Source: Massilia sp. PWRC2
Lineage (GTDB): Bacteria; Pseudomonadota; Gammaproteobacteria; Burkholderiales; Burkholderiaceae_D
DNA length: 64,000 bases
Assembly: GCF_049896725.1 (NCBI RefSeq)
Contig: NZ_JAFCUW010000005.1
Coordinates: 296,515-360,514, forward strand
Reading direction: 5' to 3'
Shown here: piece by piece, positions 21,503 to 36,510 of the stretch
Numbering within the stretch: the stretch's first letter is position 1
How the letters are laid out: each line of letters opens with the position of its first letter
The notes under the pieces: model-generated
The model's database searches: none
What the model was told of the DNA's origin: nothing
The model's input: the letters and a program-made list of their open reading frames with translations, nothing else
Translations under genes and position numbers: made by a program

Positions 21503-21509
21503 GGGCGAA

Positions 21510-21625
21510 CAGACGGAGGAAGACATGGATGAAGACATGGGCGAAGACATGGACGAAGACACGGACAAAAAAATGACAAAAACACGCACAAAGACACGCA
21601 CAAAGACACGCACAAAAACACGCAC
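21510..21625. repeat. Two adjacent 12-bp tandem arrays, (gaagacatggay)x about 5 and (aaagacacgcac)x about 4, at or upstream of the RNase H-like gene start.
   Basis: Read directly in the sequence from 21510 to 21625. Confidence 0.85.
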
Positions 21626-21795
21626 GAAGGCACCGCCGAAGCATAGCATTGCTGTCTACATTGCTGCTCTGCCGGCGCAACATTTTTCCGTTCATTGACG
21701 ACAAAAAGGCAGGCCGCCGATCGTGCTGATCGGCGGCCTGCCTTGACGGTGTTGTCTCGTTATTGTCTCGTTACTGTCTCGTTGTGGTCTGGCTG

Positions 21796-22563
21796 TTAGT
21801 TGCGGCGCGGATTGTCCGGCCGCGCATCGCGGTTGTTCGGCACACCGTCACCGTCGCGGTCGCGGTCGACGCGATTGGGGACGCCATCGTGGTCGTTGTC
21901 GCGGCGGCCATTGTGTTCGAGGCGGTCGGGAATGCCGTCGCGGTCACGGTCGCGGCCATGTTCGAAGCGGTCGGGCACACCGTCGTGGTCGCGGTCACGG
22001 CCATCGCGCGACGTCCAGCGCGGCTGATCGAAGACCCAGCGGCCACCGCGTTCGATCCACTGCGGACGCGAATAGACATAGCCGGGGCGGTCGGCCACCC
22101 AGACGCCCTGCACCCACTCGTAGCGGTTGCCGTGCCAGTCCCAGTAACCGGGTTGCCACAGATAGCCATTGCGGCCGCTGGGGGCGCGCTCAAAGCGCGG
22201 TGGTGGTGGTGCCACCCGCACCTCGTCATAGCGGGTCGCTGCCACCACCGGGTACCAGCCGCCCTGCTGCAGGCGGTAGCCGCCGCCGTCGCGGATCCAT
22301 TCGTTGGCGCGGTATTGATGGCCTTCGCGGGCCGGCTCCCAGTGACCGGCCATCCAGACGTGGCGGTGGCCGTCCCAGTTCCAGTAGCCGGGCGCCCAGG
22401 CGTAGCCGCGGCGTGCGGCCGGCACGGTTTCAAAGCGCGGCGTCGGCGGCGCGGTGTTGATGATCAGGCTCACGCCCGACTGGGCCAGCGCCGGCAGTGG
22501 CAACCAGGCGGCGGCGCTGACGGCGATCAGGGCGGCGATACTGATACTGAGAGTGCGTTTCAT
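21796..22563 (-). CDS. Secreted protein with two WXXGXW (RcnB/YXWGXW-like) repeats and a C-terminal array of Asp-rich calcium-binding-type repeats (DxDxDGxxD, TSP3-like).
   Basis: There is a signal peptide (MKRTLSISIAALIAVSAAAW...ALA). The two WXXGXW repeats read GYAWAPGYWNWDGHRHVWMAGHWE and GYLWQPGYWDWHGNRYEWVQGVWV. These are followed by a DRDRDGIPDR repeat tail. Confidence 0.65.
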   Translation of the reverse strand: MKRTLSISIAALIAVSAAAWLPLPALAQSGVSLIINTAPPTPRFETVPAARRGYAWAPGYWNWDGHRHVWMAGHWEPAREGHQYRANEWIRDGGGYRLQQGGWYPVVAATRYDEVRVAPPPPRFERAPSGRNGYLWQPGYWDWHGNRYEWVQGVWVADRPGYVYSRPQWIERGGRWVFDQPRWTSRDGRDRDHDGVPDRFEHGRDRDRDGIPDRLEHNGRRDNDHDGVPNRVDRDRDGDGVPNNRDARPDNPRRN

Positions 22564-22697
22564 GAGGTGTCTCCGAGGATGTGTTCCAACGGCCTCAATA
22601 TAGCAATCTCCCTTTGGCTTGCGCAGCGTTGAAGCAGAAACTTACAACTGAAACAGCTCGGTGCAGGTCGCCGCAGGTGCGTGCACATGCCCGCTTT

Positions 22698-22982
22698 TTA
22701 ACCGCGCGGCGCCGCTGCCGCCCGCGCCAGTGCCCGTTCATCTGCCAGCGAACGCATTTTTTGCGCGGGCGTCAGGCGCCGTGCCGCCACCTTGACCACC
22801 GCTACGTGTGACGGGGTGGCGACGGCGGTCGCGCGCGGGGTTGCTGCTGTAGCCGCGGCCGCAGCCGCGGCCGCGGCAGAGGCAGCGGCGTCGGCCGTGT
22901 GCTGCGGCAGCATGCTGGCGCTGCCCACTGCCAGCGCGGCGGCGAGGGTAAACACGGCTTCGGCATGGTGCAGGATGTTCAT
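22698..22982 (-). CDS. Small Ala-rich putative secreted protein (speculative).
   Basis: A 94 aa ORF with a signal-like N-terminus. Otherwise it is low complexity. Confidence 0.2.
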   Translation of the reverse strand: MNILHHAEAVFTLAAALAVGSASMLPQHTADAAASAAAAAAAAATAATPRATAVATPSHVAVVKVAARRLTPAQKMRSLADERALARAAAAPRG

Positions 22983-23163
22983 GGCTGGCCTCTCAAGGTG
23001 GTCGGTGGATGCTTCACTGTAGGCAGCTGACCGGCAGCGCGCCAGCGCCGTGCGACAGACGGCAGATCGGACGCGCCGGAATGCGCATGGCGGCGACCAA
23101 ATGCGGCTGCTGTTTCAGCGCCCCTCCGCTAAGCCCGTGCAGGCAGCGCAGCTGGACCGGCGC

Positions 23164-23218
23164 GCTGTTTTTAGGCTGTTTAAACGCTGCTTTAACGCTG
23201 TTTTAACGCTGTTTTAAT
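23164..23218. promoter_or_regulatory. Three direct repeats of gctgttttaacg in an otherwise GC-rich stretch, about 25-80 bp upstream of the start of the large + strand operon; a candidate operator or UP-like element.
   Basis: The sequence reads ggctgtttaaacgctgctttaacgctgttttaacgctgttttaattg. It is the only AT-rich island for several kb. Confidence 0.45.
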
Positions 23219-23245
23219 TGAGTCAACGGCACCCCACAGGACACC

Positions 23246-26200
23246 ATGGCAGGCGCGATTCGAACTTTTTTGCAGGCGGTCCGGGCCCACCGCGTGGCCT
23301 GGCGGCGATCGCGCAACCTGCAGCGCAGGGGGCCAGCGGTGCGCCCTTCAGTCAAGGCCGCCGCCGCAGTGGCTACTGCTGCCGCGCTGCGCCCGGCGCG
23401 CCTGCCGGCTGGCAGTGCCGCGTGGTGGATCAGTATGGCCGGCGTGCTGGCCGCCAGCGTCGGCGCCGTCGTCATCGTCCGCCATGCACACAGCCTGGCG
23501 CGCGCGGTCGAGCTCACCAGCGCGCCGGCGGCGGGTGTCGTGCGCCCGCTAGCAGCATTTCAGACCCTGCTACCGGGCGCCGCCCTGACGGTGCCGGCCG
23601 ATGGCAGCATCGAGGTGCTGCAGCGCGGCAGTGCCAGCGTGCTGGTGCTGGGCGCCGGCACCCGCGCCGCGCCGCTGCTGCGCATCGACCTGTGCCAGCA
23701 GCTTGGCAGCGCCAGCCCGGCGGCGCGGCTCCCCATGGTGCCGCTGCGGATCGGCTACCCGTTCGCTGACGTCGTCCGCTGGGCTGGCGCCGGCGCCGCC
23801 CCCGCGCTGCGCGCAGTGGTACTCGGCAGCGCCGACAGTGCGATGCCGAAGGTGCGCATCAGCGGCAATCCCGGCGTGACCGGCGAACCCCTGCAGCTGC
23901 GCTGGGAGGGCGCCAGCGCCGCTACCAGCTGGGTTGGTGCCGCTGCCGCTGCCGATGCCAATGCTGGCAACGCCGGCGGCGAGCACGGCGCAGTTGCCTT
24001 CCATGGCGACGGCTGGCTGGTCTGGGGCGCAGCCGCGATCCACTTTCAGCGCCAGGGACAAGCGCCATCGGCGCCGGGCGGCGGTCGCTGTGGCGCCGGC
24101 CAGTTGCTGCTGCAAGTGGTGCGCGGCGGCGCCACTGGCACCACTGGCACCACTGGCGGCACTGGCGTTGGCGGCGCGCGCGGGCAAATCACGGCATATG
24201 CGCGCGACAAGGCGTCGGCGTCGCTGTCGGCCTGGCTGGCGCCGGGCGATTACCAGGTCGCTGGCGCCGCCGCCGCCGATCTGGAAGACCACGCCTTGTT
24301 CACGCAATTGCGCGCGCGCGGCATGCTGCGGCTGGGCGCCGGCGGGCTGGCCGAACTGGCGCCACGCGACCTGCCGGCGTGGCGCGCCGCACCGGCGCCG
24401 GCGCGCGCGGCCGAACTGGCCAGCTGGGACGCGGTGCAGTTCGATGACGGCGCCCGCAGGCTCTACAAGCACCTGTACCGCATGGCCGATGGCGCCTACC
24501 TGCGCGAACAGCTACGTATTTTTAATGGTGAGCAGCATCTGCTGGCATGGCGCCTGCCAGCGTCGGCCGCAGCGTCGGCCTGGCAGGCCGAAGTCGCTGG
24601 CGAGCGCGCCAGCATCAGTACTGCCATGCCGGCGGCGGCGACGCGCCTGTTTGCCGGCGTCGCCCCGGGCTGGCAACCCTGGCAGCGCATCGAACGCTGG
24701 CCGGCCGCCGCCGCCGCCGGAGCGGTGCGGCTGACCCTGAACGTCACGCCGGCTGCCGTTAATGCACCGATTGAACTGATGCTGATCGGCCGCGCCAGCG
24801 CCGTCACTGGTGCCGTCATCCGCCAGCGCCGCGCCGTCTGCGATGGCCGCGCTTGCGCTGGGACTGCTGCTGGCACTGGCACTGGCGCCGACGCCGCCCA
24901 GCTGCTGCTGCTCGATGTGTTGCCGGGCGCGCGCAGCGTGTCGCTGGCGGTGGCGCCGCTGGACATGGCCGCGCTGGCGCAGCCGGCCGACCAGCAGTAC
25001 CGCCACCTGCGGGTCACTGACGGCCAGCTTGACTGGCAGCCACTGGCGAGCGCCGCGCCGGTGTCGCCAGCTGCCAGCACCGCCGCTTCAGCCGGCCCCG
25101 CCGGCCCCGCCGGTCCCGCCGGCCCCATCGCGCTGGTCGACCGCAACGGCGTCTCCCTGTGGGCCGATGGCGCCCCCAGTGCCGCTGCCAGCGCTGCCGG
25201 CCTGGCGCCGTTGCTGGGCTTGGGCGCCGATCACACCAGCAGTGTGGCCGGCATGCTGGCGCGCCTGCCGCCACCGGCGCCGGGCGCCGGCCACCATGCC
25301 CGCCTGAGCCTCGATCTGGCCCTGCAGGCGGCCAGCAACGGCGCCGTCGACTGCATCGGCATGCGTCACGGCCGCTGGGATGGCGTCAGCTGCACAGGGG
25401 CCCAGCCGGTGCCGCCCGGCCGCCATGCGGGCATGGTCATCATCGACGCCGAAAACGGCGACATCCTGGCCGCCGCCGGCGCCGGGGGCGTGGCCGTCAA
25501 TGCCGCCAACTGGCTCGAGGTGCGCAATTTCGACCGCAGCGATCCGGCCCGCAGCCCGCTGCGTCTGCCCGCCCTGCAGCACGATGGCGGCGCCCACGCC
25601 AGCCCTGGCTCGACCTTCAAGGTGATCAGCGCGCTGGGCCTGGAGCAGGCGGCGCAGGGCGATGCCCGCCTCGACGCCCTGCTGGCCGGCCAGCCGCTGG
25701 CCGACATCAATCGCCTGGCGCGCCAGCACGGCTTTGCGTTCGATACCAGTGCCGCCATCTATCCCATGCAAGAGCGCAGCGCCCACATCACCAACTACCA
25801 GCGGCAAAGCCTGGAGCGCCACGCCGCCAATGGCCGGCTGGGGCTGGCGCAGGCGCTGACCTTCAGCCAAAACACCTGGTTTGCCTGGCTCGCTGAACTG
25901 AGCGACGGCAGCCTGTTTGGCCGTGCCGATGGCGGCGTGCCCGACCTGCAGGCGCTCGAGCCGGGCGCCCTCGATGCCGTGCGGCCGATTGTCGGCATGG
26001 CGCGCCGGCTGGGCTTTGGCACGGCGCTGCGCCTCGATGGCGGCCTGTTGCCAGCCGATTTTCGCTGGGGCCAGTGGGATGCCCTGCAGGCGAGCGCATC
26101 GAACATCGACCCGGTGCACAGCCGCCACGAACTGCGGCAGATGGCGATCGGCCTGCGCATGCAGGTCACGCCGCTGCAGATGGCGCTGGCCGCCGCCGCC

Positions 26201-26614
26201 GTCGGCCAGGGCAGTGTGGTGGTACCGCGCCTGCTGCTGGCACTGGACCAGCGCGCGGCCAGGCCAGCGGCCGCGCAGGCGCTCGGCGTGCGCCTCGAGC
26301 GCATCCGCGCCGGCATGAAAGGGGTGGTCGATGTCGGCACCGCCGCCAGCGCCTTTGCCGATGTGCGCCTCGCTGGCGTGCGGCGCGGTCTGTTTGGCAA
26401 AACCGGTACCGCCCCCACCGGCGACGGCAGCGCCGCCACGGTCTGGTTCACCGGCTGGCTGGAAGCGGGCAGCCTGCCAGGGCAGACGCACCGGCTGGCG
26501 CTGGCGGCGTTTGTCAGCCACTCGGCGGGCAGCGGCGGCGAACATGCGGCGCCGATGATCGCTGCGGTGCTGGCGGCCAGCGCCGGCGAGAAGCCCAAAC
26601 AGAGGGGTAAATAG
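23246..26614 (+). CDS. Large membrane-anchored protein with a C-terminal class-B penicillin-binding-protein transpeptidase domain and a novel N-terminal region of about 750 aa.
   Basis: In the C-terminal 340 aa the motifs run in order: MVIIDAENGDILAAAG, SxxK (STFK), SxN (SQN), the PBP signature QVTPLQMA...GQGSVVVP, then KTG(T). There is one N-terminal TM (AAWWISMAGVLAASVGAVVIV). The N-terminal region has internal low-complexity repeats (TGTTGTTGGTG, GPAGPAGPAGP). Confidence 0.8.
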   Translation: MAGAIRTFLQAVRAHRVAWRRSRNLQRRGPAVRPSVKAAAAVATAAALRPARLPAGSAAWWISMAGVLAASVGAVVIVRHAHSLARAVELTSAPAAGVVRPLAAFQTLLPGAALTVPADGSIEVLQRGSASVLVLGAGTRAAPLLRIDLCQQLGSASPAARLPMVPLRIGYPFADVVRWAGAGAAPALRAVVLGSADSAMPKVRISGNPGVTGEPLQLRWEGASAATSWVGAAAAADANAGNAGGEHGAVAFHGDGWLVWGAAAIHFQRQGQAPSAPGGGRCGAGQLLLQVVRGGATGTTGTTGGTGVGGARGQITAYARDKASASLSAWLAPGDYQVAGAAAADLEDHALFTQLRARGMLRLGAGGLAELAPRDLPAWRAAPAPARAAELASWDAVQFDDGARRLYKHLYRMADGAYLREQLRIFNGEQHLLAWRLPASAAASAWQAEVAGERASISTAMPAAATRLFAGVAPGWQPWQRIERWPAAAAAGAVRLTLNVTPAAVNAPIELMLIGRASAVTGAVIRQRRAVCDGRACAGTAAGTGTGADAAQLLLLDVLPGARSVSLAVAPLDMAALAQPADQQYRHLRVTDGQLDWQPLASAAPVSPAASTAASAGPAGPAGPAGPIALVDRNGVSLWADGAPSAAASAAGLAPLLGLGADHTSSVAGMLARLPPPAPGAGHHARLSLDLALQAASNGAVDCIGMRHGRWDGVSCTGAQPVPPGRHAGMVIIDAENGDILAAAGAGGVAVNAANWLEVRNFDRSDPARSPLRLPALQHDGGAHASPGSTFKVISALGLEQAAQGDARLDALLAGQPLADINRLARQHGFAFDTSAAIYPMQERSAHITNYQRQSLERHAANGRLGLAQALTFSQNTWFAWLAELSDGSLFGRADGGVPDLQALEPGALDAVRPIVGMARRLGFGTALRLDGGLLPADFRWGQWDALQASASNIDPVHSRHELRQMAIGLRMQVTPLQMALAAAAVGQGSVVVPRLLLALDQRAARPAAAQALGVRLERIRAGMKGVVDVGTAASAFADVRLAGVRRGLFGKTGTAPTGDGSAATVWFTGWLEAGSLPGQTHRLALAAFVSHSAGSGGEHAAPMIAAVLAASAGEKPKQRGK

Positions 26615-26695
26615 GGGGCTGACGTGCGGCTGCCCGGGCGCCAATCTGTGGCATGATTTCCATGCGCCCGTCATGGGCATTGGAACGGGGAAGGT

Positions 26696-28027
26696 ATGCG
26701 TCTGCCGGGAACACGGTATCAGGAACACGGCTGGGAACTGGTGCGAAAACTGTTGGGGCAGTGTTCGTTGCAGGCCTGCGCCGCTGGCCTGCCCGCACGG
26801 ATTGTCAACGTCAACGTTAACAACAGCGCCAGCGCCGCGCTGGCGGACTGCCTGGACGACTACATCGAGCGTTGCAGCGGCGCCTTGCGCGCCAGCGCCC
26901 GCCAGCCACGCGCCGCCGCCGATGGCAACAGCTATGGCGAGAGCGTGCTGGAACTGGCGCTGGCGCTGCTGTGCGAGCTGCAGGCGCGGCCAGCCGACTG
27001 GCACGCCCTGGCGGCGGCGCTTGGCGCCGACGCGGCCCGTCTGGGCCATTTCTGGCAGCAGCCCGGCGGCGAGGCCATGCTGCGCAAAAAATTCAACGAT
27101 ATGTATGCGCTCCTGCGCGACAAGGTCGATTGCGACAATTACATCGTCGCCTGCGGCCGCCCGTGCAGCGCCAACCGCATGTACGCTTACCGCATGCTCG
27201 ACACCGCATATGCCGACATTGCCCGCCTGTTCGACAGCTGGCGCGAGGCGCCCGAGCAGGTGGCGGCGATTCTAGGGCGCGCCGTCGATGCCGCTGCCGC
27301 CCCCATTGAAGTGCGCCAGATGAAGTCGATCGGCGACTGCCAGGCGGCGTGGCTGATCGCCTGGAGCGCCTCGCGCGAGCGCTTCACCGGTGCCGCTGGC
27401 CCGCTGCACACCCACTCGAAGCGTTTTGCCAATTTAAAAAACAGCCCCGATAAAATCGCCGCCATGCTGGCGGAAATCGGCGACTATGAACAACTGTCGG
27501 CCAACGGCGACGGCCCGTGGCAGCAGGATGCCGCCGACGCCAGCGCCTGGCTGGACGATCTGGCGCGGGTGTTGGACGACGCGGTCGATGATGACGGCGA
27601 TGGCGGGCGCGTGCTGGCCCGGCCCGCCGCCGCCGCCGCTGCCGATGCCGATGCCGATGCCGATGGCGCCGACCACAGTGCAGCGCGCAGCGCACTTTCA
27701 GCGCCCCCCAGCTACGTTTCAGTGGCGCTGCTGGCCGGCGACGCTGCTCTCTGGGCGGCGCGGGCGATGGCCGGCTGTTCGCTGCCGGTGCAGCTGGCGG
27801 TCTATTTGAAGCTGGTCGGGGCACGCGACGACTGCTACCGGGCCGAATGGCTCGACGGCGTCAGCGGCGAGCTGCCCACCATGGCCCAGCTGGCGGCCCT
27901 CGACGGCGTCTCGCTGCCAACCCTGCGCAAGCGGCGCGACAGTGCCATCGCGGCGCTGCAGGCCGGTACGCAGGCCGGGCCGCGGCCGGGCGGCGGCACC
28001 GATGAACCAATCAGGAGAGCACAGTGA
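26696..28027 (+). CDS. Hypothetical protein with a C-terminal sigma-70 region-4-like HTH.
   Basis: The 443 aa sequence ends in ...ELPTMAQLAALDGVSLPTLRKRRDSAIAALQ, which resembles sigma-70 region 4. Its stop overlaps the next start (ATGA-type coupling at 28024). Confidence 0.5.
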   Translation: MRLPGTRYQEHGWELVRKLLGQCSLQACAAGLPARIVNVNVNNSASAALADCLDDYIERCSGALRASARQPRAAADGNSYGESVLELALALLCELQARPADWHALAAALGADAARLGHFWQQPGGEAMLRKKFNDMYALLRDKVDCDNYIVACGRPCSANRMYAYRMLDTAYADIARLFDSWREAPEQVAAILGRAVDAAAAPIEVRQMKSIGDCQAAWLIAWSASRERFTGAAGPLHTHSKRFANLKNSPDKIAAMLAEIGDYEQLSANGDGPWQQDAADASAWLDDLARVLDDAVDDDGDGGRVLARPAAAAAADADADADGADHSAARSALSAPPSYVSVALLAGDAALWAARAMAGCSLPVQLAVYLKLVGARDDCYRAEWLDGVSGELPTMAQLAALDGVSLPTLRKRRDSAIAALQAGTQAGPRPGGGTDEPIRRAQ

Positions 28028-28617
28028 ACAAGCGGGTAAGCGATTCATCCACCCTGGCGCGCAAGCTCGCTGGCGCGGCGCTGCTGGCGCGCCGCGTCGA
28101 CGGTGATTATCTGGTGCTCAGTGACGCCACCTTGTGTGCGGCCATCGATGGCAGCTGCCCCTTGCGCAGCGCCGAAGCGCAGGCGCTGGCGGGCTCGCCG
28201 TTGACTTTGCGGCGCCTGCGCCTGCTGGCCGATGGCATGCGGGCGACGCCGTGGAGCGCCAGCGCCGGCATGCTGCGCGCTGCCGCCAGCGCTGACAGTT
28301 CGATGGCAGTCCTCGAGACCGACGACGGCCACTGGGCGCTGCACTTTGTTTTGCAGGATGGCCAGTGGCAGCTGGTGCTCAAGCTCGACGCCGCCGCGCC
28401 GTTTGCCGCCCGCCTGCTCGCTGGCGACGGCGCGCCCTTCATCGAAGTGCGCGACGGCGCCGGCGGCCTGCTGCTGCAGGGACGCCTCGATGGCGACGGC
28501 GAATGCGAACAGGCGTGGCCATGCGCGCTGGCGCCAGCCTTGCATTTCCAGCAGCACGGGGCGCGCTTTACGGTGACGCCGGTGACCCTGGTGGCGCCGG
28601 CGGGGCCGGCGCGATGA
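28024..28617 (+). CDS. Hypothetical protein (197 aa).
   Basis: Coding statistics and GC3 support it. It is translationally coupled to its neighbours, with stop/start overlaps at both ends. No recognisable domain. Confidence 0.5.
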   Translation: MNKRVSDSSTLARKLAGAALLARRVDGDYLVLSDATLCAAIDGSCPLRSAEAQALAGSPLTLRRLRLLADGMRATPWSASAGMLRAAASADSSMAVLETDDGHWALHFVLQDGQWQLVLKLDAAAPFAARLLAGDGAPFIEVRDGAGGLLLQGRLDGDGECEQAWPCALAPALHFQQHGARFTVTPVTLVAPAGPAR

Positions 28618-29783
28618 TCGAGCTGGCCAGCCGCTGGTGGCAGCGCTCGCGCCGCGCCGCGCCGCCCGACAATGCAGCGCTGGGCGAGAGCGTGCTGGCC
28701 ATCGCGGTGCCCGCTGCCAGCGTGCAGGGCAGCGCCTGCGATGCGGTGCTGATCGCCGGTGGCGGCCGCAGCCGCCGCAGCAGCGCTGCGGCGCCGCTGG
28801 CGCCCGAGCCGGACGAGACGGCCTGGCTGTTTCACCCCGGTCCCTACCACTGCGTGCTGCGGCCCTTTGCCGCCGCCCCCGAGCTGGGACTGCAGCTGTG
28901 CTTTGTCATCGATGGGTCTGACCCGCGGCTGGCGCAGCAGCGCTTTGACCTTTACCTGGCCAGCGAAGTGCAGGGCAGCGCGGTGGTTCTGGCGCTGGCG
29001 CCGTTTTGCGCCGCCCTCGAAGCGGCGCTGCAGCAGCAATTGACGCAAGGACAGCTGGAGCTGCCGCCTTGCACCAGCGTGGCCGAATGGAACCGCTTTC
29101 GCGCTGGCCTGAACCGCCTGCTGTACCAGCGCTTTGGCGTGACGCTCGACGATTGCCTGCCGGTCGATCTCGGTGACCGCATTGATTTTGCCGCCATGCT
29201 GGCCGCGCGCGTTGCCAGTGCACCAAAAGCGCAGCAGGATGCCGAAGTGGCGCCTGCAGCGGCGCCAGCACAATCACAATCACCAGCACCAGCACCAGCA
29301 CCAGCACCAGCGCCGGCCGCCGTCGACGCCGCGGCCCTGCGCCGCCTGTTCCTCGAGCTGCCGTGCCTGACGGCCGCGCTGCGCGCCGCCGTGCTGCAAG
29401 ATGAGACGATGGCGGCGAACACGGCGCAAACTGCGGCGCTCGATGGGTCCCCGCAATTCCGCCGCCAGCAGGCACTGTGGCGTCGTCTTGACCTGGTTAA
29501 CTTGCAGGTCAGCACCATGCCGGCGCTGGCGCTCGCTGCGCCCGGGCTGGCGCTCGGCCGCAGCGAGCAGGCGCGGCGTGCCCGCCACAGCCAGCGCGCC
29601 TGCGCTGCGCTCGACGATGGCTGGGCGCTGCTGGCCCGGCTGGACGGCACTCCCCGCCGCGCCGCCGACACTGCCGCCGCTGCCAGCGACGACGCCGAGC
29701 GCATCGTCGCCAACCTCGAATTCGATCTGCAGGAACGGCGCGCGATTGCCGCGCCGGACAGCGGCGAGATGGCAGCGTCATGA
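28614..29783 (+). CDS. Hypothetical protein (389 aa) with a PAPAPAPA linker.
   Basis: It starts at MIELASRWW (an ATG overlapping the upstream stop). No recognisable domain. Confidence 0.5.
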   Translation: MIELASRWWQRSRRAAPPDNAALGESVLAIAVPAASVQGSACDAVLIAGGGRSRRSSAAAPLAPEPDETAWLFHPGPYHCVLRPFAAAPELGLQLCFVIDGSDPRLAQQRFDLYLASEVQGSAVVLALAPFCAALEAALQQQLTQGQLELPPCTSVAEWNRFRAGLNRLLYQRFGVTLDDCLPVDLGDRIDFAAMLAARVASAPKAQQDAEVAPAAAPAQSQSPAPAPAPAPAPAAVDAAALRRLFLELPCLTAALRAAVLQDETMAANTAQTAALDGSPQFRRQQALWRRLDLVNLQVSTMPALALAAPGLALGRSEQARRARHSQRACAALDDGWALLARLDGTPRRAADTAAAASDDAERIVANLEFDLQERRAIAAPDSGEMAAS

Positions 29784-30811
29784 GCGCCGCCGCACCTGTA
29801 CCATCGGCCAGCGCCAGCGTGTGCAGCGTCCTGGCCGATGGCAGCACGCTGACGGTGACGGCCACGCGCCGCCCGCGCGCCAACCGCGCCGACATCAAGT
29901 GCAGCGTGCCGGCCTCGCCGGCACTGGCCGCGCGCCTGCAGCAGGTGCTGCAACTGGCGCGTCTGACCGAAGCGCGCTTCGACAGTCGCGATCAGGTGGT
30001 GGTCAGTTTTGATGCCACCCCTGCCGATCTGGAGCGCGACTGGGAACTGCCAGCAGTGCTGGCCGACCGCCTGGTGCGTGGCCTGTATCAGCCACGCAAA
30101 GCGGTGTGGGCAAATGGCTGGTCGGACCACTGGCAGCTTGGCCGCATCGATGGCAGCGCGCTCGCCGCTACCGATGCGCCAGACGTACCGGCGGGGACGC
30201 TGGTGGGCGGGCCTGACGGCCTGGCTCACCTGGGCATGTTGACCGGCCGGCCCGACCAGGCCGGGGCGGTATCGAGCGCACGCACCTGGTTCCCGCTGCA
30301 CAGCGGTGGCGTCAACGACAGCCTGTGCTGGGTCGAGGTCAGCGTCTATCCGCTGCTTGCTGGCGCCGCTGAAGAAGAAGAGTGCATCGCCGTGCCGGGG
30401 CTCGATGTGCTGGGGCAGACAGCGGTGCGGGCGACGCTGGCGGCGGCGCGCCGCTTCGACCCCTATGGCAGTGGGCGCTGGAACAGCGTGGTGCGCTTCG
30501 GCGCGTCGCGCTTCCAGGGCAATTCGTGGCAACTGGCGGCGGTGATGGCCGATCGGCTGGCGCGCGGGCGCGAATTCGTGCCGCGCGGGCGCATCCTGGC
30601 CAGCGGCTGTTCGGCCGACTGGCAAAGCGGCCGCGTCGACACCGTCGAGGCGCGCGAGGCCAAGCTGGCGCTGCTGCTGGCGCAGGCGGTGACGGGGGAC
30701 CGCCTGCTGTTGCCGGCGGCGTGGGAGGCGGCACTGCCAGCCGGCTTTGTCGAAGCGCTCGCCGCCAGCGGCGCCAGTGTCGCCTGTGTCGAACGCATTG
30801 GCATGATTTGA
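29780..30811 (+). CDS. Hypothetical protein (343 aa).
   Basis: It overlaps the upstream stop by 4 bp. No recognisable domain. Confidence 0.5.
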   Translation: MSAAAPVPSASASVCSVLADGSTLTVTATRRPRANRADIKCSVPASPALAARLQQVLQLARLTEARFDSRDQVVVSFDATPADLERDWELPAVLADRLVRGLYQPRKAVWANGWSDHWQLGRIDGSALAATDAPDVPAGTLVGGPDGLAHLGMLTGRPDQAGAVSSARTWFPLHSGGVNDSLCWVEVSVYPLLAGAAEEEECIAVPGLDVLGQTAVRATLAAARRFDPYGSGRWNSVVRFGASRFQGNSWQLAAVMADRLARGREFVPRGRILASGCSADWQSGRVDTVEAREAKLALLLAQAVTGDRLLLPAAWEAALPAGFVEALAASGASVACVERIGMI

Positions 30812-30917
30812 AACTCGTCCCTGCGCGCGCCCTGCTAGAATCGGAGGGCGGCGCGGGCAATGCAGGGCAGGGCAAGCCTGCTTCGATAGCGCCAACTGAT
30901 GAACCGGGAGCAGGTAT

Positions 30918-33083
30918 ATGCAGATGTTTGGAATGGGCGGCGCCAAGTGTCCCCGCTGTGAGCACAAGAATGCCGGCACGGCCGCTTACTGCGCGCAGTG
31001 CGGCCTGCTGCTGGGCGCGCCCCGCAATGCGCCCGTGCTGGTCGATAATCGCTGGATCGCCGGCGCTGACGAACTGGCGGTGTTCTTCGGTGTGCAGGCG
31101 CTAGCGGGCCTGTTTGTCAAGACCTTGCGGGTACCGGCCACCACCCGCGCCTATATTCTTCAGGGTGGCGCCGCCACCGAGGTGCCGCAGGGCGACTACG
31201 AGATCGAAGGTTTTTTTAGCCGCTTGAACAACCTGCTGCGCGACGACCACGCCGAAATCCTGATCACCCGCAGCACCCCGGTGGTGCTGGTGTTTGCCTT
31301 CGACGAGCTGGCCAGCGCCGAGCACCTGGCGCTGTCGGTGCAGCTGTCGGTGAGCGTGCAGATCGAACAGGTGGCCGCGTTTGCGCGCCACTTCATGACC
31401 ATGCCGGGTACCGTCAGCAGCGCGCAACTGGTCGAACTGCTGGCGCCGTCGGTGCGCCAGCTGGCCGCCGAATTCATCGCCGGCCAGTCACTGCGCGACA
31501 TGAGCCGCAATGGCGCGCTGCGCGCCCAGTTTGACGAACGCCTGCAGGGCGGCCTGCAGCAGCGCCTGGCGCTGTATGGGCTGGCGGTGGTGCAGGTCGA
31601 CACCCTCAGTCTGAAACACGATAAATTCGACGCCCACCGTGCCCGCATCGGCAGCCTGTGGCTGCTGGCCGACGAGCGCAACGTCGAACTCGAACATGCG
31701 GGCCACCTCGACGCACTGTATGACGACGGCGAGTGGCAAAAAATCCGCCGCGCCGAAGCCGACAGCCGGCTGCGTTACCGGCGCGCCGAACTGGCGCAGG
31801 ACGATGCCATCGACAAGGCCGAACTGTCGCTGCAAAACAGCGAACGCCTGCAGGCGGTGCGCGCGCGTGAAATCGAACTGTACTCGCGCATCGTCGAAGC
31901 GAAAAACCGCCAGCAGGCCATCGCCGCCGGTGCCGGCGAAGTGCTCGCTGAACTCGAACACGAGCAGGCGCAGAAAAACGCCGCGCGTGGCGATGTCGCT
32001 GCCGACTGGGCCCATTCGCGTCACATCGCCCAGATCCGCATGCGCACCGAACTGGAATTGTCGCAGCAGCAGGCGGTGGAAAGCCGCCAGCTGGCGCAGC
32101 AGCGCTTTTCGCACCAGCTGTTGCAGCAGCAGATCGGCAACAAGGTGGCGCAAGCGCTGCTGATCGAAGATGAAACGGCCAAGCGCAATGAACTGGCGCG
32201 CCTGCGCCAGGCGCGCCAGAGTGCCGACGGTCGCCAGGCGGCCATCGAGCACGAGCAGCACATTGCGCGCCACCAGGCGCTGGCGCTGGTCAATGCCGCC
32301 CATGCGCGCGAGGCGGCGCGCCTGCAGGAATGGGAAGACCAGCTGGCGCAGGAGCGCGCGCGCGAACTGGCGCGCAGCAGCGGCGCCCAGGACGCCCTCA
32401 GCCAGCACGAAAAACTGCTGCGTACCATCGCCGCCGACGATCTGCACAGCCGCAACGCCGACCAGCGCATGCTGGCCATCGAACAGGCCCGCCACCAGCA
32501 GGGACAAGACAGCCAGGAAGCCCAGTGGCAGCAAGAGCTGCGCCGCATCGGCGCGCAGCGCGAAGCGCGCTTTGCCGAGCTGACCCAGCAGGCCGACCTG
32601 GCGCGCCTGGAGATCGCCCGCGCCGACAGCCTTGGCGCCATGAGCGACACTGCCAAGCTGGCGCTGGCCGGTGCCGCCAATGCAGCGGTGCTGGCCGATT
32701 ACCTCAAAACCCAGGTCCACGCCGGCATGGGCGCCGACCAGCTGGCGGCACTGGCGGCGGTGGTGGGCGCCACCAATAGCGTCACGCCGCAGGAAGCGCT
32801 GCGGCTGGCCGACCTCCGCGAGCAGCGCGACAGCGCGCGCCGCGAGCGTGACATCGACAAGGACCGCCAGCACCAGCTCGAGCTGATCAAGCTGCAGAAT
32901 GATGTCAACAAGGCGGCGCTGGCGGCGCAGTCGCAGCTGGGGATCGGCGTCGCCGGCGGCGGCGCTGCTCCTGCCGTTGCTGCGGCCGCGCCTGGCGCGG
33001 ACGTGCCGCGCTGCCCGCACGGCCATCCGGTGCGCGCCGGTGAGCGCTTTTGCGGCCACTGCGGCGCCGCCCTGGGAGCGTAA
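30918..33083 (+). CDS. Double zinc-ribbon protein with a long Q/R/E/A-rich coiled coil (possibly a band-7/SPFH-like segment).
   Basis: An N-terminal CPRCEHKNAGTAAYCAQCG and a C-terminal CPHGHPVRAGERFCGHCG zinc ribbon flank about 450 aa of predicted coiled coil. Confidence 0.55.
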   Translation: MQMFGMGGAKCPRCEHKNAGTAAYCAQCGLLLGAPRNAPVLVDNRWIAGADELAVFFGVQALAGLFVKTLRVPATTRAYILQGGAATEVPQGDYEIEGFFSRLNNLLRDDHAEILITRSTPVVLVFAFDELASAEHLALSVQLSVSVQIEQVAAFARHFMTMPGTVSSAQLVELLAPSVRQLAAEFIAGQSLRDMSRNGALRAQFDERLQGGLQQRLALYGLAVVQVDTLSLKHDKFDAHRARIGSLWLLADERNVELEHAGHLDALYDDGEWQKIRRAEADSRLRYRRAELAQDDAIDKAELSLQNSERLQAVRAREIELYSRIVEAKNRQQAIAAGAGEVLAELEHEQAQKNAARGDVAADWAHSRHIAQIRMRTELELSQQQAVESRQLAQQRFSHQLLQQQIGNKVAQALLIEDETAKRNELARLRQARQSADGRQAAIEHEQHIARHQALALVNAAHAREAARLQEWEDQLAQERARELARSSGAQDALSQHEKLLRTIAADDLHSRNADQRMLAIEQARHQQGQDSQEAQWQQELRRIGAQREARFAELTQQADLARLEIARADSLGAMSDTAKLALAGAANAAVLADYLKTQVHAGMGADQLAALAAVVGATNSVTPQEALRLADLREQRDSARRERDIDKDRQHQLELIKLQNDVNKAALAAQSQLGIGVAGGGAAPAVAAAAPGADVPRCPHGHPVRAGERFCGHCGAALGA

Positions 33084-33092
33084 CAGGCCACG

Positions 33093-35426
33093 ATGTCAGC
33101 GCCGCCGCCCACCCCGATGCCGTCCGCCCGCGACAAGTTGCGCGAGCTGCGCGCGCTGCATGAAGATGGCCTGCTCAGCCAGCAGGAGTTCGACAGCCGC
33201 CGCAACGCCATCCTCGACGCTGCATATGCACCGACGGCGCCACCTGCAGCGTCAGCCACAGCGTCAGCAAGGGCGGCGCCGGCAGCTGATTCTTTTGGGA
33301 TGGCGCGCCCGGGCACCGAGCTCGGTCTGATGGTGGGCCAGGAAATCGGCCCGCAGCAGCGCCGCTACCGGCTCGAACGCCTGATCGCCCAGGGTGGCAT
33401 GGGCCAGGTGTGGCAGGCGCTCGATCTGGCCACCCACCAGGAACTCGGTCACAGCGCGTCGGTGGCAGTGAAAATCCTGCCACCCCAGCTGACCGTCAGC
33501 GCCACCCATGCGCGCCTGCTGCTGGAGGAGGCGACCCAGGCGCGCCGGCTGGCGCATGAGCACATTGTGCGGGTCTACGAATGGGCCCAGGACCCGGCCA
33601 CTTCCAGCTATTTTTTGATCATGGAATGCCTCGAGGGCGAAGACCTCGACAGCCTGCTGGCGCGCGAGACGCGCATGCCCTTCGACCGTGCGCTCGGTCT
33701 GCTCGAACCGGTCGCCGGCGCGCTCGCCTATGCGTGGGACAAGCACCGGCTGGTGCACCGCGATATCAAGCCGGGCAATGTGTTCGTCACCAGCAGCGGC
33801 GACGTCAAGCTGCTCGACTTTGGCATCGCCGCGCGCGCGCGCTCGTCGGCCAGCAGCATTGGCCTGGAAGCGCCGGCCGATTCCGGTACCGCCGGCTACC
33901 GCGCGCCGGAAGCCGGTGTGCACCAGCGCAAACCGGCGCCCACCCAGGATGTCTATGGGGTGGCGGTGATGCTGTACCAGATGCTGGAAGGGCGCCTGCC
34001 ATTCGATGGCCCGCGCGACCCTGCCAGCACGCTGACGCCAGCGCGTCCGCCCGGTCTGAACGATGCCCAGTGGCGCCTGCTGCAGACGGGCTTTGCCATC
34101 GATGCGGCGCGGCGCCCCGCCAGCGTGCAGAAATTGCTGGTGCAGCTGCGCGCCGCAGGCAGCGCGCCAGCGTCGTCGTCGGCGGCGGCAGCAGCAGCGG
34201 CAATGGCGCCGGCAGCGGTGCGGCCGGCCGCCAGTGCCGTCGAACTGGCCGCCGCCAGCCAGCGCGAACAGCTGCGCGCGCAACAGCAAGCGCAGCGCAC
34301 GCTGGAAGCGGCGGCCGCCGTCCAGCAAGCCAATCGCGAGCGGCGCGAACAGGAAAAAGCCCAGCGCCTGCTGCTCGACGCCGCCCGCAGCGAGCGCAAG
34401 GAAGCGCTGCGCCGCCAGCTGCTCGAACGGCGCGCGCTCGATGCCGAGACAGCGCGCATCGAGCGCGAAGAGGCGCACAGGAAGGCGCTGCAAGCCAGAG
34501 CGGCAGCGGCCTACCGCCAGGAACAGCAGCGTGCGCGCGCCGAGGTGGCCGCCCGCGTGCAGGCCGAACTGGCGGCGCTACTGCCGTCAGCATCGAGCCC
34601 GGTGGCCGACAGTGAGGGGGTGCTGCGCGACCGCTTTCTCGATGGCTCGGCGGTGGCGCCCGACCTGGTGCTCATACCCACCGGGCGCTTTCAAATGGGT
34701 TCGCCCGAGCATGAGCGCAAGAAGGCGATCGACGCCGGCTCGCAGCAGTCGTGGGTCGAGCGCGAAACGCCGCAGCGCTGGGTCGGCATCGAAAAGCCCA
34801 TCGCCATGGGCCGCTTTCCCATTACCGTCGGCCAGTGGCGCCTGTTTGTTGCCGCCAGCGGCTGGCAGGCGCCGGCCCAATTCAATTGGGCCGAGCCGGG
34901 TTTTCGCCAGGCTGACGATCACCCGGTGGTGGGCGTGAGCTGGCATGACGCCGTCGCCTACGCCGCCTGGCTGTCAAGCATGACGGGCCAGCGCTACCGC
35001 CTGCCCAGCGAAGCCGAATGGGAATACGCCTGCCGCGCCGGCACCCGCAGCGCGTTTAGTTTTGGCGACTCCATCAGTACCGATCTGGCCAACTACGACG
35101 GCAACTTCAGCTACAACGACAGCCCGAAAGGGGTGTACCGCAAGGGCACCACAGCGGTCACGCAATTCCCGCCCAACCAGTGGGGGCTGTACGACATGCA
35201 CGGCAATGTGTGGGAATGGGTGCAGGACGTGGTGCACGATAATTACCAGGGCGCGCCCAATACCGGCCGCGCGTGGGAAGATGGCGGCGATCCGGGACGG
35301 CGCATCTTGCGCGGCGGCTCGTGGCTGTACAATCCGCGTTATCTGCGTTCGAGCCTGCGCAACGGCTTTTCGGCCACGCGCAGCAACGGCATCATCGGCT
35401 TTCGGCTGGCGCGCGAGCTCCTTTAA
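33093..35426 (+). CDS. Hanks-type Ser/Thr protein kinase fused to an N-terminal SHOCT domain and a C-terminal formylglycine-generating-enzyme (FGE-sulfatase/SUMF1-like) domain.
   Basis: The SHOCT domain reads KLRELRALHEDGLLSQQEFDSRRNAIL. The kinase domain has the motifs VAVK, HRDIKPGN, DFG and GTAGYRAPE. The FGE domain has VGVSWHDAVAYAAWLS, RLPSEAEWEYACRAGT, WGLYDMHGNVWEWVQD and RGGSW. Confidence 0.9.
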   Translation: MSAPPPTPMPSARDKLRELRALHEDGLLSQQEFDSRRNAILDAAYAPTAPPAASATASARAAPAADSFGMARPGTELGLMVGQEIGPQQRRYRLERLIAQGGMGQVWQALDLATHQELGHSASVAVKILPPQLTVSATHARLLLEEATQARRLAHEHIVRVYEWAQDPATSSYFLIMECLEGEDLDSLLARETRMPFDRALGLLEPVAGALAYAWDKHRLVHRDIKPGNVFVTSSGDVKLLDFGIAARARSSASSIGLEAPADSGTAGYRAPEAGVHQRKPAPTQDVYGVAVMLYQMLEGRLPFDGPRDPASTLTPARPPGLNDAQWRLLQTGFAIDAARRPASVQKLLVQLRAAGSAPASSSAAAAAAAMAPAAVRPAASAVELAAASQREQLRAQQQAQRTLEAAAAVQQANRERREQEKAQRLLLDAARSERKEALRRQLLERRALDAETARIEREEAHRKALQARAAAAYRQEQQRARAEVAARVQAELAALLPSASSPVADSEGVLRDRFLDGSAVAPDLVLIPTGRFQMGSPEHERKKAIDAGSQQSWVERETPQRWVGIEKPIAMGRFPITVGQWRLFVAASGWQAPAQFNWAEPGFRQADDHPVVGVSWHDAVAYAAWLSSMTGQRYRLPSEAEWEYACRAGTRSAFSFGDSISTDLANYDGNFSYNDSPKGVYRKGTTAVTQFPPNQWGLYDMHGNVWEWVQDVVHDNYQGAPNTGRAWEDGGDPGRRILRGGSWLYNPRYLRSSLRNGFSATRSNGIIGFRLARELL

Positions 35427-35460
35427 GGGCGCGCCACCCACACTTTTTTCAGGCACCCAC

Positions 35461-36360: not shown

Positions 36361-36408
36361 ATCGATGCACGTGTGCAGTGGCGTGCTCAACGTTGTGATG
36401 GAGGCGTC

Positions 36409-36510
36409 ATGCACATCCCGCCCAAGCTGCACATTCCCATGACCGTGTTCACCCTGCTGGCCATCATGCTGGCGGGTTTTGCGCTGATTTTCCTGGTGCT
36501 GGCACCGTAA
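36409..36510 (+). CDS. Candidate 33-aa single-TM small protein (MHIPPKLHIPMTVFTLLAIMLAGFALIFLVLAP), absent from the ORF track.
   Basis: An ATG has a GGAGG 6 nt upstream. The product is a hydrophobic helix, in an intergenic gap between convergent genes. Confidence 0.3.
   Translation: MHIPPKLHIPMTVFTLLAIMLAGFALIFLVLAP

Follow-up and report, generated by a model that had tools for sequence, protein, structure and literature searches.

CalpL, CalpT and CalpS are a type III CRISPR-associated SAVED-Lon protease, an anti-sigma factor and a sigma factor of ECF-like type. In this system, an ATP-independent Lon-fold protease drives a transcriptional response (PMC11417357; bioRxiv 10.1101/2024.05.08.593097). 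Proteases are also paired with SPFH proteins in HflK/C-FtsH and in stomatin PH1511-NfeD/STOPP PH1510, and STOPP, a Ser-Lys dyad protease, cleaves its own SPFH partner (PMC13086221). YdjI/SamI (Band_7_1), from the pspA-ydjGHI/samGHI operon, is a soluble SPFH protein that is recruited to membrane partners and whose role in stress signalling has consequences for transcription (bioRxiv 10.64898/2026.02.06.704340).

The locus described here lies in a window of 64,000 nucleotides (the whole stretch of DNA that was analysed) from Massilia sp. PWRC2, and consists of four ORFs followed by a gene for an SPFH protein (Table 1). As in HflK/C-FtsH and PH1511-PH1510, the SPFH-family scaffold gene adjoins the gene of a predicted protease. 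However, those proteases have AAA+ Zn-metalloprotease or ClpP-like folds and the pairs are membrane-anchored, whereas ORF4 has a Lon fold and both it and the SPFH protein are without a TM segment; this SPFH protein also stands apart by its Zn-ribbons and by a coiled coil that is about 400 residues long. The product of the SPFH gene resembles YdjI/SamI in being soluble, but PspA, YdjG and YdjH are missing and the partners are a predicted protease, a putative HTH protein, ORF2 and ORF3. Unlike CalpL/T/S, the module has no SAVED sensor, CRISPR locus or recognisable ECF sigma or anti-sigma domain. Its protease domain is tandemly duplicated with one copy apparently dead, ORF3 and the SPFH protein are additional components, and the locus is chromosomal and vertically inherited. 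The likeness to CalpL/T/S is functional and architectural only.

Table 1. Features of the locus, with positions in the window
Feature	Residues	Position	Strand	Description
PBP-like gene		23246-26614	+	1122 aa, bitopic, one TM (residues 60-78), transpeptidase domain with STFK, SQN and KTG motifs; lineage-specific partner
Box TGTGGCATGATTT		26647-26659	+	TRTG-n + CATGAT, extended -10-like; 37 nt upstream of ORF1 start codon
ORF1		26696-28027	+	443 aa, ATG start
ORF1 all-alpha domain	~10-270	26723-27505	+	no PDB match
ORF1 acidic disordered linker	~274-350		+	variable length
ORF1 C-terminal three-helix HTH	363-426	27782-27973	+	AF2 model
ORF2		28024-28617	+	197 aa, GTG start, AGGAG 8 nt upstream
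ORF3		28614-29783	+	389 aa, ATG start
ORF3 N-domain	~10-195	28641-29198	+	conserved (alignment)
ORF3 (PA)6 run	224-235	29283-29318	+	within Pro/Ala-rich linker
ORF4		29780-30811	+	343 aa, ATG start
ORF4 N copy	~8-143	29801-30208	+	without dyad; D87 replaces Ser
ORF4 C copy	~161-343	30260-30808	+	S249 (30524-30526), K295 (30662-30664)
Second box copy ATTGGCATGATTT		30797-30809	+	inside last ORF4 codons, 109 nt upstream of SPFH start
SPFH gene		30918-33083	+	721 aa: Zn-ribbon, SPFH/Band-7, long coiled coil, Zn-ribbon; Pfam Band_7 and Zn-ribbon matches; fifth module member
Kinase gene		33093-35426	+	777 aa: SHOCT, Ser/Thr kinase, coiled coil, FGE-sulfatase; start 9 nt past SPFH gene; lineage-specific partner

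An earlier note on this DNA had described the four ORFs with 4-bp overlaps at 28024/28027, 28614/28617 and 29780/29783. Both the coordinates and the junction sequences agree with this description, since cAGTGAa (ORF1/ORF2), cGATGAt (ORF2/ORF3) and tCATGAg (ORF3/ORF4) each contain a 4-bp start/TGA overlap. A further 4-bp overlap is present in the same window at 45122-45125. Codon-position GC was coding-like in the called frames (GC3 0.79-0.83, GC2 0.53-0.57) and not in the long antisense ORFs at 25088-27049 and 28952-30979 on the minus strand. The dN/dS of ORF1-4 against three relatives was 0.25-0.39. For ORF3, a longer GTG start at 28365 is mechanically possible, but the orthologue alignment favours 28614. 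Protein searches found more than 900 homologues of ORF4 and more than 1100 of ORF1. The homologues of ORF1-4 all carry the name 'hypothetical', and ORF1-4 had no match in Pfam, NCBIfam, PADLOC or the PDB sequences, as the description of the proteins as uncharacterised had implied. ORF1-4, the SPFH protein and the kinase all lack TM segments, which places them in the cytoplasm. The four ORFs encode real cytoplasmic proteins that are inherited vertically, and the genes look co-transcribed. The overlaps had also been taken as the hallmark of a stoichiometric complex. 4-bp overlaps are frequent in high-GC operons; they reflect tight operon packing and are no hallmark of such a complex. The only direct hint of physical association concerns ORF3 and ORF4, since distant relatives have the two as a single polypeptide.

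ORF1-4 were all found, in unchanged order, in 77-80 of the 80 Oxalobacteraceae loci, and identity within the family is 41-76%. Neither of the outcomes that the earlier note had named as refuting the calls, missing synteny or a wrong frame, was thus seen. The 4-bp overlap is kept between ORF3 and ORF4 in about 72 of 79 loci and between ORF1 and ORF2 in about 45 of 77, and the spacing at the ORF2/ORF3 junction is mostly -4 to +9. Across genera the locus sits at a single, fixed site of the chromosome, flanked by the same housekeeping genes, and it was seen in 195 species genomes. Its distribution in Oxalobacteraceae is vertical and near-universal, not patchy, and no plasmid or phage copies of the module were found. 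The SPFH gene is present in 80/80 loci; of the distant loci, L081, L082, L084, L085 and L087 have it after ORF4, and L086 and L088 have it close by, and the L082 orthologue gives a weak Band_7_1 match. ORF1-4 and the downstream SPFH gene are kept as a unit in all eight distant loci and form a conserved five-gene module that was undescribed before. L082, L084, L085 and L087 show the order ORF1-ORF2-ORF3-ORF4-SPFH with PBP and kinase both absent. L081, the most distant locus, encodes a 646-aa protein, an ORF2 homologue (E 3e-19), an ORF3::ORF4 fusion and an SPFH-like protein. The PBP-like gene is upstream of ORF1 in 76/80 Oxalobacteraceae loci and in L086 and L088, and is absent from L081, L082, L084, L085 and L087. 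In L086 and L088 the kinase and SPFH genes are likewise paired, and the kinase gene is absent from the PBP-less loci. Because the five genes occur without PBP or kinase in other lineages, PBP and kinase are lineage-specific add-ons to the module and not the reverse, and a view of ORF1-4 as simply the scaffold or cargo of a PBP/kinase system is not supported.

By structure, ORF4 consists of two tandem domains with the fold of the Lon proteolytic domain. The statement that none of the proteins belongs to a recognised family is therefore correct for sequence and incorrect for fold, as ORF4 is, on its model, a double Lon-type protease domain that had escaped annotation. ORF4 had no match in Pfam or NCBIfam at E <= 1, and its family profile found no PDB chain at E <= 10. 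The conserved motif is GxSxxLAxxxAD[RK] ... G ... GxV ... K ... P, and S249 is kept in 118/119 and K295 in 114/117 aligned representatives, including relatives at 25-35% identity. In the AF2 model, the two residues follow the order of the Lon dyad: GxS stands at the N-terminus of a helix, and K in the helix that follows GxV. From motif order and secondary structure, S249/K295 are the putative positional equivalents of Lon S679/K722. The dyad residues are kept in the C copy and lost in the N copy, a pattern that one catalytic and one structural domain would be expected to show. ORF4 carries no AAA+ ATPase module, no SAVED domain and no other domain besides the two Lon folds, and the conserved block has no AAA+ gene. 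ORF4 differs from Lon (MEROPS S16), LonB, BrxL, RadA/Sms and ComM in matching no Lon model or PDB chain by sequence, in lacking an AAA+/helicase module and in having two domains in tandem. The Ser-Lys proteases VP4 of birnaviruses are single-domain enzymes of viral polyprotein processing, and their structural likeness to ORF4 is much weaker.

The N-domain of ORF3 is homologous to the N-terminal region of the ORF4-like proteins P0306, P0313 and P0322 of about 700 aa (hhalign probability 95.6%, E 1.2e-8), which are natural fusions of the two in distant relatives. These fusions and the conserved 4-bp overlap link ORF3 with ORF4. The (PA)n linker noted before is a (PA)6 run; linker length is highly variable among orthologues and the C-terminal domain is conserved. 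No Pfam match was found in 28 orthologues of ORF3 or in distant orthologues, and no PDB match. hhalign of the N-domain against the neighbouring SPFH domain gave a topologically plausible alignment that was not significant (2.3% probability, P 0.02), and an SPFH identity is not supported. In ORF2, alignments show an invariant S-P-x-T-x-x-R (SPLTLRR in the window) in the N-terminal part and LDxDGE...W in the C-terminal part, and the domain search gave sub-threshold Ig-like or cadherin-like matches only.

ORF1 begins with an invariant N-terminus, MRLPGTRYQEhGWE, and is predicted to be a DNA-binding protein whose C-terminal HTH follows an acidic, disordered linker. The C-terminal sequence quoted in the earlier note is present and nearly invariant among orthologues. 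The AF2 model places the HTH helices at 363-374, 396-403 and 407-426 (pLDDT 76-91 over 390-420), in line with the HTH proposed there, but its assignment to sigma-70 region 4 is not established. The best Foldseek matches were sigma-70 factors at E 0.2-1, so that this likeness is a weak lead only; sub-threshold matches pointed to the HTH of GntR (E ~0.1) and of HipB/XRE (E 0.54). Sigma70_r2, r3 and r4 had no match in full ORF1 proteins, C-terminal fragments or distant orthologues, and hhalign against an E. coli RpoD fragment (an approximate query sequence) was negative. ORF1 is not identifiable as an ECF sigma factor, and is not demonstrably a sigma factor or a member of another known regulator class. 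Across 73 loci, the spacer between PBP and ORF1 has no well conserved block other than the promoter-like TGTGGCATGATTT box. TGGCATNAT is found 35-80 nt upstream of ORF1 in 64/77 loci, and distant loci have the variants TGTGGCAAGAT, TGTGGCAAAAT, TGTGGCAATAT and TGCGGTAAAAT upstream of ORF1. In 49/75 loci ORF4 uses ATT for its last Ile, compared with 12% of the Ile codons within the gene bodies of ORF1-4, and this enrichment argues for DNA-level constraint on the box at the end of ORF4. The conserved box may be a plain housekeeping extended -10 promoter.

Our best reading, which we put forward tentatively, is that the module is a signalling device built on an SPFH-associated, ATP-independent protease and having a transcriptional output. 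Like CalpL or birnavirus VP4, ORF4 would be a Ser-Lys endopeptidase that cuts at specific sites and needs no ATP. It would form a complex with ORF3, and the oligomeric SPFH protein would hold or gate it. Upon a signal, ORF4 would cleave a module component, most likely ORF1, in or near the linker or the invariant N-terminus, or the small ORF2 as an inhibitor of ORF1. Cleavage would free the HTH of ORF1 and change transcription, and the two conserved GGCATGATTT boxes, before ORF1 and before the SPFH gene, are possible ORF1 targets. The module's own promoter-like box, which is kept even in distant loci, speaks for this reading. The absence of a TM segment from the SPFH partner, unlike the HflK/C and stomatin precedents, is a point against it.

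It is somewhat unlikely that the module instead serves envelope or membrane-stress quality control without a dedicated transcriptional output. Here an SPFH cage would regulate a protease responsible for the turnover of proteins of envelope biogenesis or signalling (PBP, SEDS, kinase substrates), as in HflK/C-FtsH or Psp/YdjGHI, with ORF1 and ORF2 as adaptors. SPFH-protease pairing is a classical theme (PMC13086221), and membrane-stress sensing involves a cytosolic SPFH protein, SamI/YdjI (bioRxiv 10.64898/2026.02.06.704340). The locus lies among the PBP-like gene, a second kinase, PP2C, a SEDS (FtsW/RodA-like) gene and a second unknown gene, and in the loci without PBP and kinase a membrane M48 peptidase and DUF898 adjoin the module instead. 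However, this explanation does not account for the conserved putative HTH of ORF1, the module proteins have no TM segments, and processive degradation of folded proteins by an ATP-independent Lon-fold domain is unlikely.

An anti-phage or conflict system of the abortive-infection type also seems unlikely. The Lon-like protease would act as effector or activator and ORF1 and ORF2 as sensor and inhibitor, with phage perturbation of the membrane reported by the SPFH protein. CalpL is a defence-associated Lon-fold protease (PMC11417357), and ORF4-type Lon domains are elsewhere fused to HEPN_Swt1, TPR and Sel1 + PG-binding domains, which is typical of conflict systems. Distant loci adjoin genes for a TIR_2 protein (L088), caspase-like and AAA proteins (L081), Tse2/Tsi2 (L082) and RhuM (L087), and the identities and dN/dS values given above indicate fairly fast evolution. 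Against this, PADLOC-DB 2.0 had no match for ORF1-4, the SPFH protein or the PBP-like protein, and the kinase domain of the neighbouring gene matched generic kinase models only (PD-T4-6, Mad6). The fixed chromosomal position, the vertical, near-universal occurrence (195 species genomes), the lack of plasmid or phage copies and the absence of an obvious toxic effector domain also speak against defence.

That ORF4 is not a protease, its Lon-like domains being a ring-forming or nucleic-acid-binding module (cf. RadA/Sms, ComM) with the module acting on DNA or RNA, is quite improbable, given that the dyad Ser and Lys are kept in about 97-99% of representatives while both are lost in the N copy, and that the module has no ATPase or helicase. 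High-GC DNA gives long ORFs in all frames, and 73 ORFs with a length of 100 aa or more overlap 20000-38000, but spurious wrong-frame calls are refuted by the codon-position GC, the protein homologues, the gene order kept across 80 loci, dN/dS below 0.4 and the confident AF2 folds of ORF1 and ORF4.

If the module is a protease signalling device as we tentatively suggest, its signal would come from a membrane partner, and this partner varies between lineages. The bitopic PBP-like protein and the soluble Ser/Thr kinase with an FGE-sulfatase domain would be the partners in Massilia, Duganella and related genera, and in other lineages the DUF898/M48-peptidase pair may take this role.

Our data indicate that ORF1-ORF4 are, as a matter of essential certainty, genuine genes of one conserved module. 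The window is from Massilia sp. PWRC2 (Oxalobacteraceae), the name borne by the database proteins with 100% identity to ORF4 and ORF1. The earlier note had described four coupled ORFs; they lie on the + strand, and the stated positions and overlaps proved exact; neighbouring genes share 4 bp each (GTGA at ORF1/ORF2, ATGA at ORF2/ORF3 and at ORF3/ORF4). It had named a lack of conservation or synteny, or a wrong frame, as fatal to the calls. Neither was found, because codon-position GC is coding-like, synteny extends over 80 loci, dN/dS is 0.25-0.39 for ORF1-ORF4 (against three relatives) and the 4-bp overlaps are conserved among loci, most strongly at ORF3/ORF4. GC3 is 0.79-0.83 in the four frames, and a coding-like codon-position GC was not found in the long antisense ORFs overlapping the region; such antisense ORFs are inevitable in GC-rich DNA. 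Homologues number at least 929 for ORF4 and at least 1158 for ORF1, all named 'hypothetical' and none with a Pfam annotation. In GTDB, sampled at one genome for each species, 195 ORF4 relatives were found; the best 80 of these 195 loci, which belong to Massilia, Duganella, Rugamonas, Pseudoduganella, Janthinobacterium and Telluria, formed the synteny set. A WXXGXW lipoprotein gene on the - strand is followed there by the + strand PBP-like gene, ORF1, ORF2, ORF3, ORF4, the SPFH gene and the kinase-FGE gene, an order conserved in 76-80 of the 80 loci. Downstream, wherever the flank of the locus extends that far, genes for a 515-aa protein and a PP2C phosphatase are oriented towards this operon. 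Pfam, NCBIfam and PADLOC scans gave no usable match for the ORF1-ORF4 proteins; the Pfam scans also took in 28 ORF2 orthologues and as many of ORF3, distant orthologues and C-terminal fragments of ORF1. Profile searches against PDB sequences with ORF1-ORF4, a diversified ORF2 profile and an ORF1 HTH profile gave nothing significant.

Positions of the features discussed (window coordinates unless a distant locus is named)
Feature	Position	Strand	Remarks
PBP-like gene	23246-26614	+	
ORF1	26696-28027	+	443 aa; orthologues 50-68% identical to the window protein
ORF2	28024-28617	+	197 aa; 48-61% identical; GTG start, AGGAG 8 nt upstream of GTG
ORF3	28614-29783	+	389 aa; 41-56% identical
(PA)6 run of ORF3	29283-29318	+	
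ORF4	29780-30811	+	343 aa; 55-76% identical
S249, ORF4 C-terminal copy	30524-30526	+	G-x-S at helix start
K295, ORF4 C-terminal copy	30662-30664	+	in helix after G-x-V
SPFH gene	30918-33083	+	
Kinase-FGE gene	33093-35426	+	
Box TGTGGCATGATTT	26647-26659		upstream of ORF1
Box ATTGGCATGATTT	30797-30809		within last ORF4 codons
Tandem repeat CGCTGTTTTAA	23163-23217		11 bp, 5 copies
Further 11-12-bp arrays	20069-20138, 21496-21641, 21752-21783		neighbouring intergenic or 5' regions
RNase H-like gene	20774-21649	-	
Second signalling/cell-wall cluster	36523-46219	-	515-aa unknown, PP2C, MFS transporter, 599-aa unknown, 800-aa SEDS, second Ser/Thr kinase
DUF898 and M48 (DUF7092) genes, L082	4532-5668, 3463-4521		divergent, upstream of ORF1
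DUF898 and M48 (DUF7092) genes, L084	5485-6771, 4414-5463		divergent, upstream of ORF1
DUF898 and M48 (DUF7092) genes, L085	5671-6774, 4612-5661		divergent, upstream of ORF1
DUF898 gene, L087	467-1609		divergent, upstream of ORF1; only DUF898 recognisable; RhuM gene between

The conserved unit is five genes, ORF1-ORF4 plus the SPFH gene; it is not the four ORFs, nor the block that includes the PBP-like and kinase genes. The ORF1-ORF4 block is constant in seven of eight distant loci. Neither PBP nor kinase accompanies ORF1-ORF2-ORF3-ORF4-SPFH in L082, L084, L085 (Massilia sp. W12) and L087. In L086 and L088, PBP-ORF1-ORF2-ORF3-ORF4 is followed by 3.7-7 kb of unrelated genes and then by the SPFH-kinase-FGE pair. 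The exception is L081, whose first gene encodes a 646-aa protein (N-terminus MTFGGANYQD...) and has no detectable homology to ORF1; an ORF2 homologue, a fused ORF3::ORF4 gene and a gene for an SPFH-like protein make up the rest. The SPFH protein is the constant companion of ORF1-ORF4, and the PBP-like and SHOCT-kinase-FGE genes are additions in the Massilia-group lineage. The module also occurs, in diverged form, in other lineages, which are themselves known from metagenomes only. In the loci that have no PBP or kinase, a DUF898 membrane protein and an M48 peptidase may be an alternative membrane partner; this pair was not found in the window. The SPFH protein consists of a Zn-ribbon (residues ~10-33), a Band-7 domain, a coiled coil of ~400 residues rich in Gln, Glu, Arg and Ala, and a second Zn-ribbon (~697-719), and its L082 orthologue has no N-terminal ribbon. 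The PBP-like protein is membrane-anchored by one TM segment and keeps the STFK, SQN and KTG motifs intact. No TM segment was found in ORF1-ORF4, ORF2 included, in the SPFH protein or in the SHOCT-kinase-FGE protein.

The C-terminal half of ORF4 resembled the Lon active-site region by eye, and a Lon fold was therefore tested. The AF2 model had a pLDDT of 85.8 (22 homologues), and hhalign showed homology between the two halves of the protein (98%, E 1.4e-13). In alignment and model, the C-terminal copy follows the usual Lon arrangement, with G-x-S first, then (A/S)-(T/S)-G ... G-x-V ... K and, last, a buried strand ending in P. The N-terminal copy has D87 at the Ser position and no Lys. In an exhaustive profile search, 196 relatives emerged from 1.84 billion cluster representatives. 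Of the 128 listed relatives with at least 150 aa, those that could be aligned have the Ser in 118 of 119 cases and the Lys in 114 of 117. Lon sequence models and PDB chains gave no sequence-level match, and an AAA+ module is absent with ORF4. We conclude that ORF4 is probably a new and highly divergent Lon-fold protein that lacks an ATPase, with one domain probably catalytic and the other degenerate. It is likely to be a Lon-fold Ser-Lys enzyme, with predicted peptidase activity. Stand-alone Lon-fold enzymes such as CalpL and VP4 are site-specific, ATP-independent endopeptidases. According to an unlikely rival explanation, ORF4 would form a non-catalytic Lon-like ring; the near-invariant Ser and Lys of the C-terminal copy, together with their loss from the N-terminal copy, argue for the enzyme. 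The C-terminal type of domain, with Ser and Lys kept, also occurs as a single copy in the distant proteins P0361, P0379, P0382 and P0383. Proteins that carry Sel1 repeats and a PG-binding domain, or TPR repeats, have the single Lon-like domain close to their N-terminus; in proteins of ~1000 aa it stands C-terminal to a Swt1-like HEPN domain. Because the domain occurs singly in such proteins, its distribution points to a wider unannotated Lon-fold clade employed in other contexts.

In the orthologue alignment of ORF3, an N-domain (~residues 10-195) and a C-terminal domain are conserved, and a Pro/Ala-rich linker varies from ~20 to >150 residues. The (PA)n linker noticed earlier is present as (PA)6. 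The distant proteins P0306, P0313 and P0322 (~700-736 aa) have a region homologous to the ORF3 N-domain ahead of a double Lon domain (hhalign 95.6%, E 1.2e-8, 163 columns). Direct evidence for physical joint action among the four proteins comes solely from this 'Rosetta-stone' fusion, which suggests it for ORF3 and ORF4, in agreement with the near-universal overlap of the two genes. P0263, a further candidate fusion, was rejected as a frameshifted artefact and excluded from the evidence. The sequence pattern had led to the guess that ORF3 is an SPFH paralogue. All-against-all hhalign among the proteins of the locus was negative, domain-trimmed diversified hhalign of the N-domain gave P 0.02 only and Pfam scans found no match, and an SPFH identity is therefore not claimed. 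ORF2 has the invariant motifs S-P-x-T-x-x-R, W-x-x-S-x-G ... AA and LDxDGE ... W, and its only matches are sub-threshold ones of Ig-like or cadherin-like type. Its homologue is recognisable in L081, the most distant locus (E 3e-19).

The AF2 model of ORF1 (pLDDT 76.8, 30 homologues) shows an all-alpha domain at ~residues 10-270 (pLDDT ~90), an acidic disordered linker of variable length at ~274-350 and three C-terminal helices (363-374, 396-403 and 407-426). The N-terminus MRLPG(T/S)RYQE-GWE-VRKLL is invariant, distant loci included, and the nearly invariant motif LPxRLAVYxKxLG ... LPTxxQLAxxxxxSxPTLRKRR runs over the C-terminal helices. The earlier note had seen in this C-terminus a sigma-70 region-4-like HTH. 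The helices and the motif are in keeping with the HTH; the sigma assignment is unproven, because sigma Pfam models and hhalign against RpoD were negative and profile searches with the isolated C-terminus returned only generic HTH echoes (GntR, E ~0.1; HipB, E 0.54). Foldseek found nothing at E <= 0.001. Its top 12 hits, non-significant (E 0.2-1.1), all belong to the sigma-70 family, with most of each chain aligned, and a sigma factor is kept as a lead only. tblastn with RpoE and RpoD found no canonical sigma gene in the fetched loci.

The 81-bp spacer between the PBP-like gene and ORF1 is variable save for the box TGTGGCATGATTT, which in 64 of 77 loci precedes ORF1 by 35-80 nt; variants stand upstream of ORF1 in distant loci as well. 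The box reads as a putative extended -10 element (TRTG-n-CATGAT). A sigma-54 promoter was considered and rejected, the GG-to-GC spacing being 9 or 12 nt, not 10, and the GC element unconserved; the extended -10 (TRTGn) reading appears to fit better. A second copy, ATTGGCATGATTT, lies within the final codons of ORF4, 109 nt before the SPFH start, and GGCATGATTT is common to both sites. The final Ile codon of ORF4 is ATT in 49 of 75 loci, compared with 12% ATT elsewhere in these genes, and this strong preference for a rare codon argues for selection on the DNA. Intrinsic-terminator-like sites were not found in the + strand intergenic gaps. ORF1-ORF4 and SPFH-kinase are thus probably each transcribed from a promoter of their own, the two promoters being alike. 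A common regulator or type of promoter may serve both transcription units.

The CGCTGTTTTAA repeats recur at intervals of about one helical turn, ~30 bp before the PBP-like start codon; like the other 11-12-bp arrays, they may serve as phased elements for regulation or bending. The 12-bp array at 21496-21641 encodes the (VFVR)n and Ser/Met-rich N-terminal repeats of the RNase H-like gene as called from its first start codon; the real start is probably further downstream, or else the N-terminus is a variable repeat region. A gap of ~1.1 kb (35427-36522) separates the convergent kinase-FGE and 515-aa genes, and a GC3 filter found no convincing ORF in it; this interval ranges from ~0.3 to 5 kb in other loci. 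The second signalling/cell-wall cluster, convergent to the operon, resembles the FHA-PP2C-SEDS-PBP-kinase clusters of Actinobacteria. Its SEDS protein is FtsW/RodA-like with a weak FHA-like (Yop-YscD_cpl) match at the N-terminus, its kinase and SEDS genes overlap by 4 bp, and the 515-aa and PP2C genes are syntenic in many Oxalobacteraceae loci.

CalpL cuts an anti-sigma factor and so turns a signal into transcription (PMC11417357; 10.1101/2024.05.08.593097). In HflK/C-FtsH, SPFH oligomers gate a protease, and in PH1511/PH1510 an SPFH protein is cut by a Ser-Lys protease (PMC13086221). SamI, a soluble SPFH protein, mediates membrane-stress signalling (10.64898/2026.02.06.704340). By analogy, ORF3 and ORF4 would constitute an SPFH-associated protease, a signal via lineage-specific membrane partners would lead it to cut ORF1 or ORF2, and the cleavage would liberate the HTH domain of ORF1. 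We regard this whole chain as tentative, with a little less than an even chance of being correct. A more elaborate version is unlikely: ORF1-ORF4 and SPFH would be an undescribed, CRISPR-independent analogue of CalpL-CalpT-CalpS (SAVED-Lon protease, anti-sigma factor and ECF-like sigma factor), in which a soluble SPFH cage holds a pseudo-hexameric ORF4 ring with ORF3 as adaptor, and envelope or phosphorylation signals lead to cleavage of ORF2 or ORF1, freeing a highly divergent sigma-70-like or HTH factor with a new all-alpha fold that acts at TGTGGCATGATTT-box promoters. Two less likely rival explanations concern the module as a whole. A purely proteostatic envelope complex would accord with the SPFH-gated protease precedent, and the conserved HTH of ORF1 has to be weighed against it. 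A conflict or defence system would have a parallel in the CRISPR-associated CalpL; plasmid and phage searches found no copies of ORF4.

A description of this gene set was not found in literature searches, and the ORF1-ORF4 proteins all fall outside the curated families. Lon fold, HTH and SPFH neighbour are parts of known kinds; the features that appear to be undescribed are the tandem Lon architecture without an ATPase, the fold of ORF1 and the assembly of five genes. Our study turns ~4 kb of 'hypothetical' sequence into a module present in 195 sampled Oxalobacteraceae species genomes. It adds a new predicted Lon-fold architecture, in which a live and a dead site stand in tandem and no ATPase is present; a new predicted kind of SPFH-protease pairing, all of whose partners are soluble; and a predicted HTH protein with a 260-residue domain that lacks a PDB counterpart. 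Because of the family-wide conservation and the clear predicted catalytic residues, the module is directly testable in culturable Massilia, Duganella and Janthinobacterium. If proteolytic signalling is true, it would tie Ser/Thr-kinase and PBP-type envelope sensing to transcription by a route undescribed in proteobacteria, and the CalpL principle would extend beyond CRISPR.
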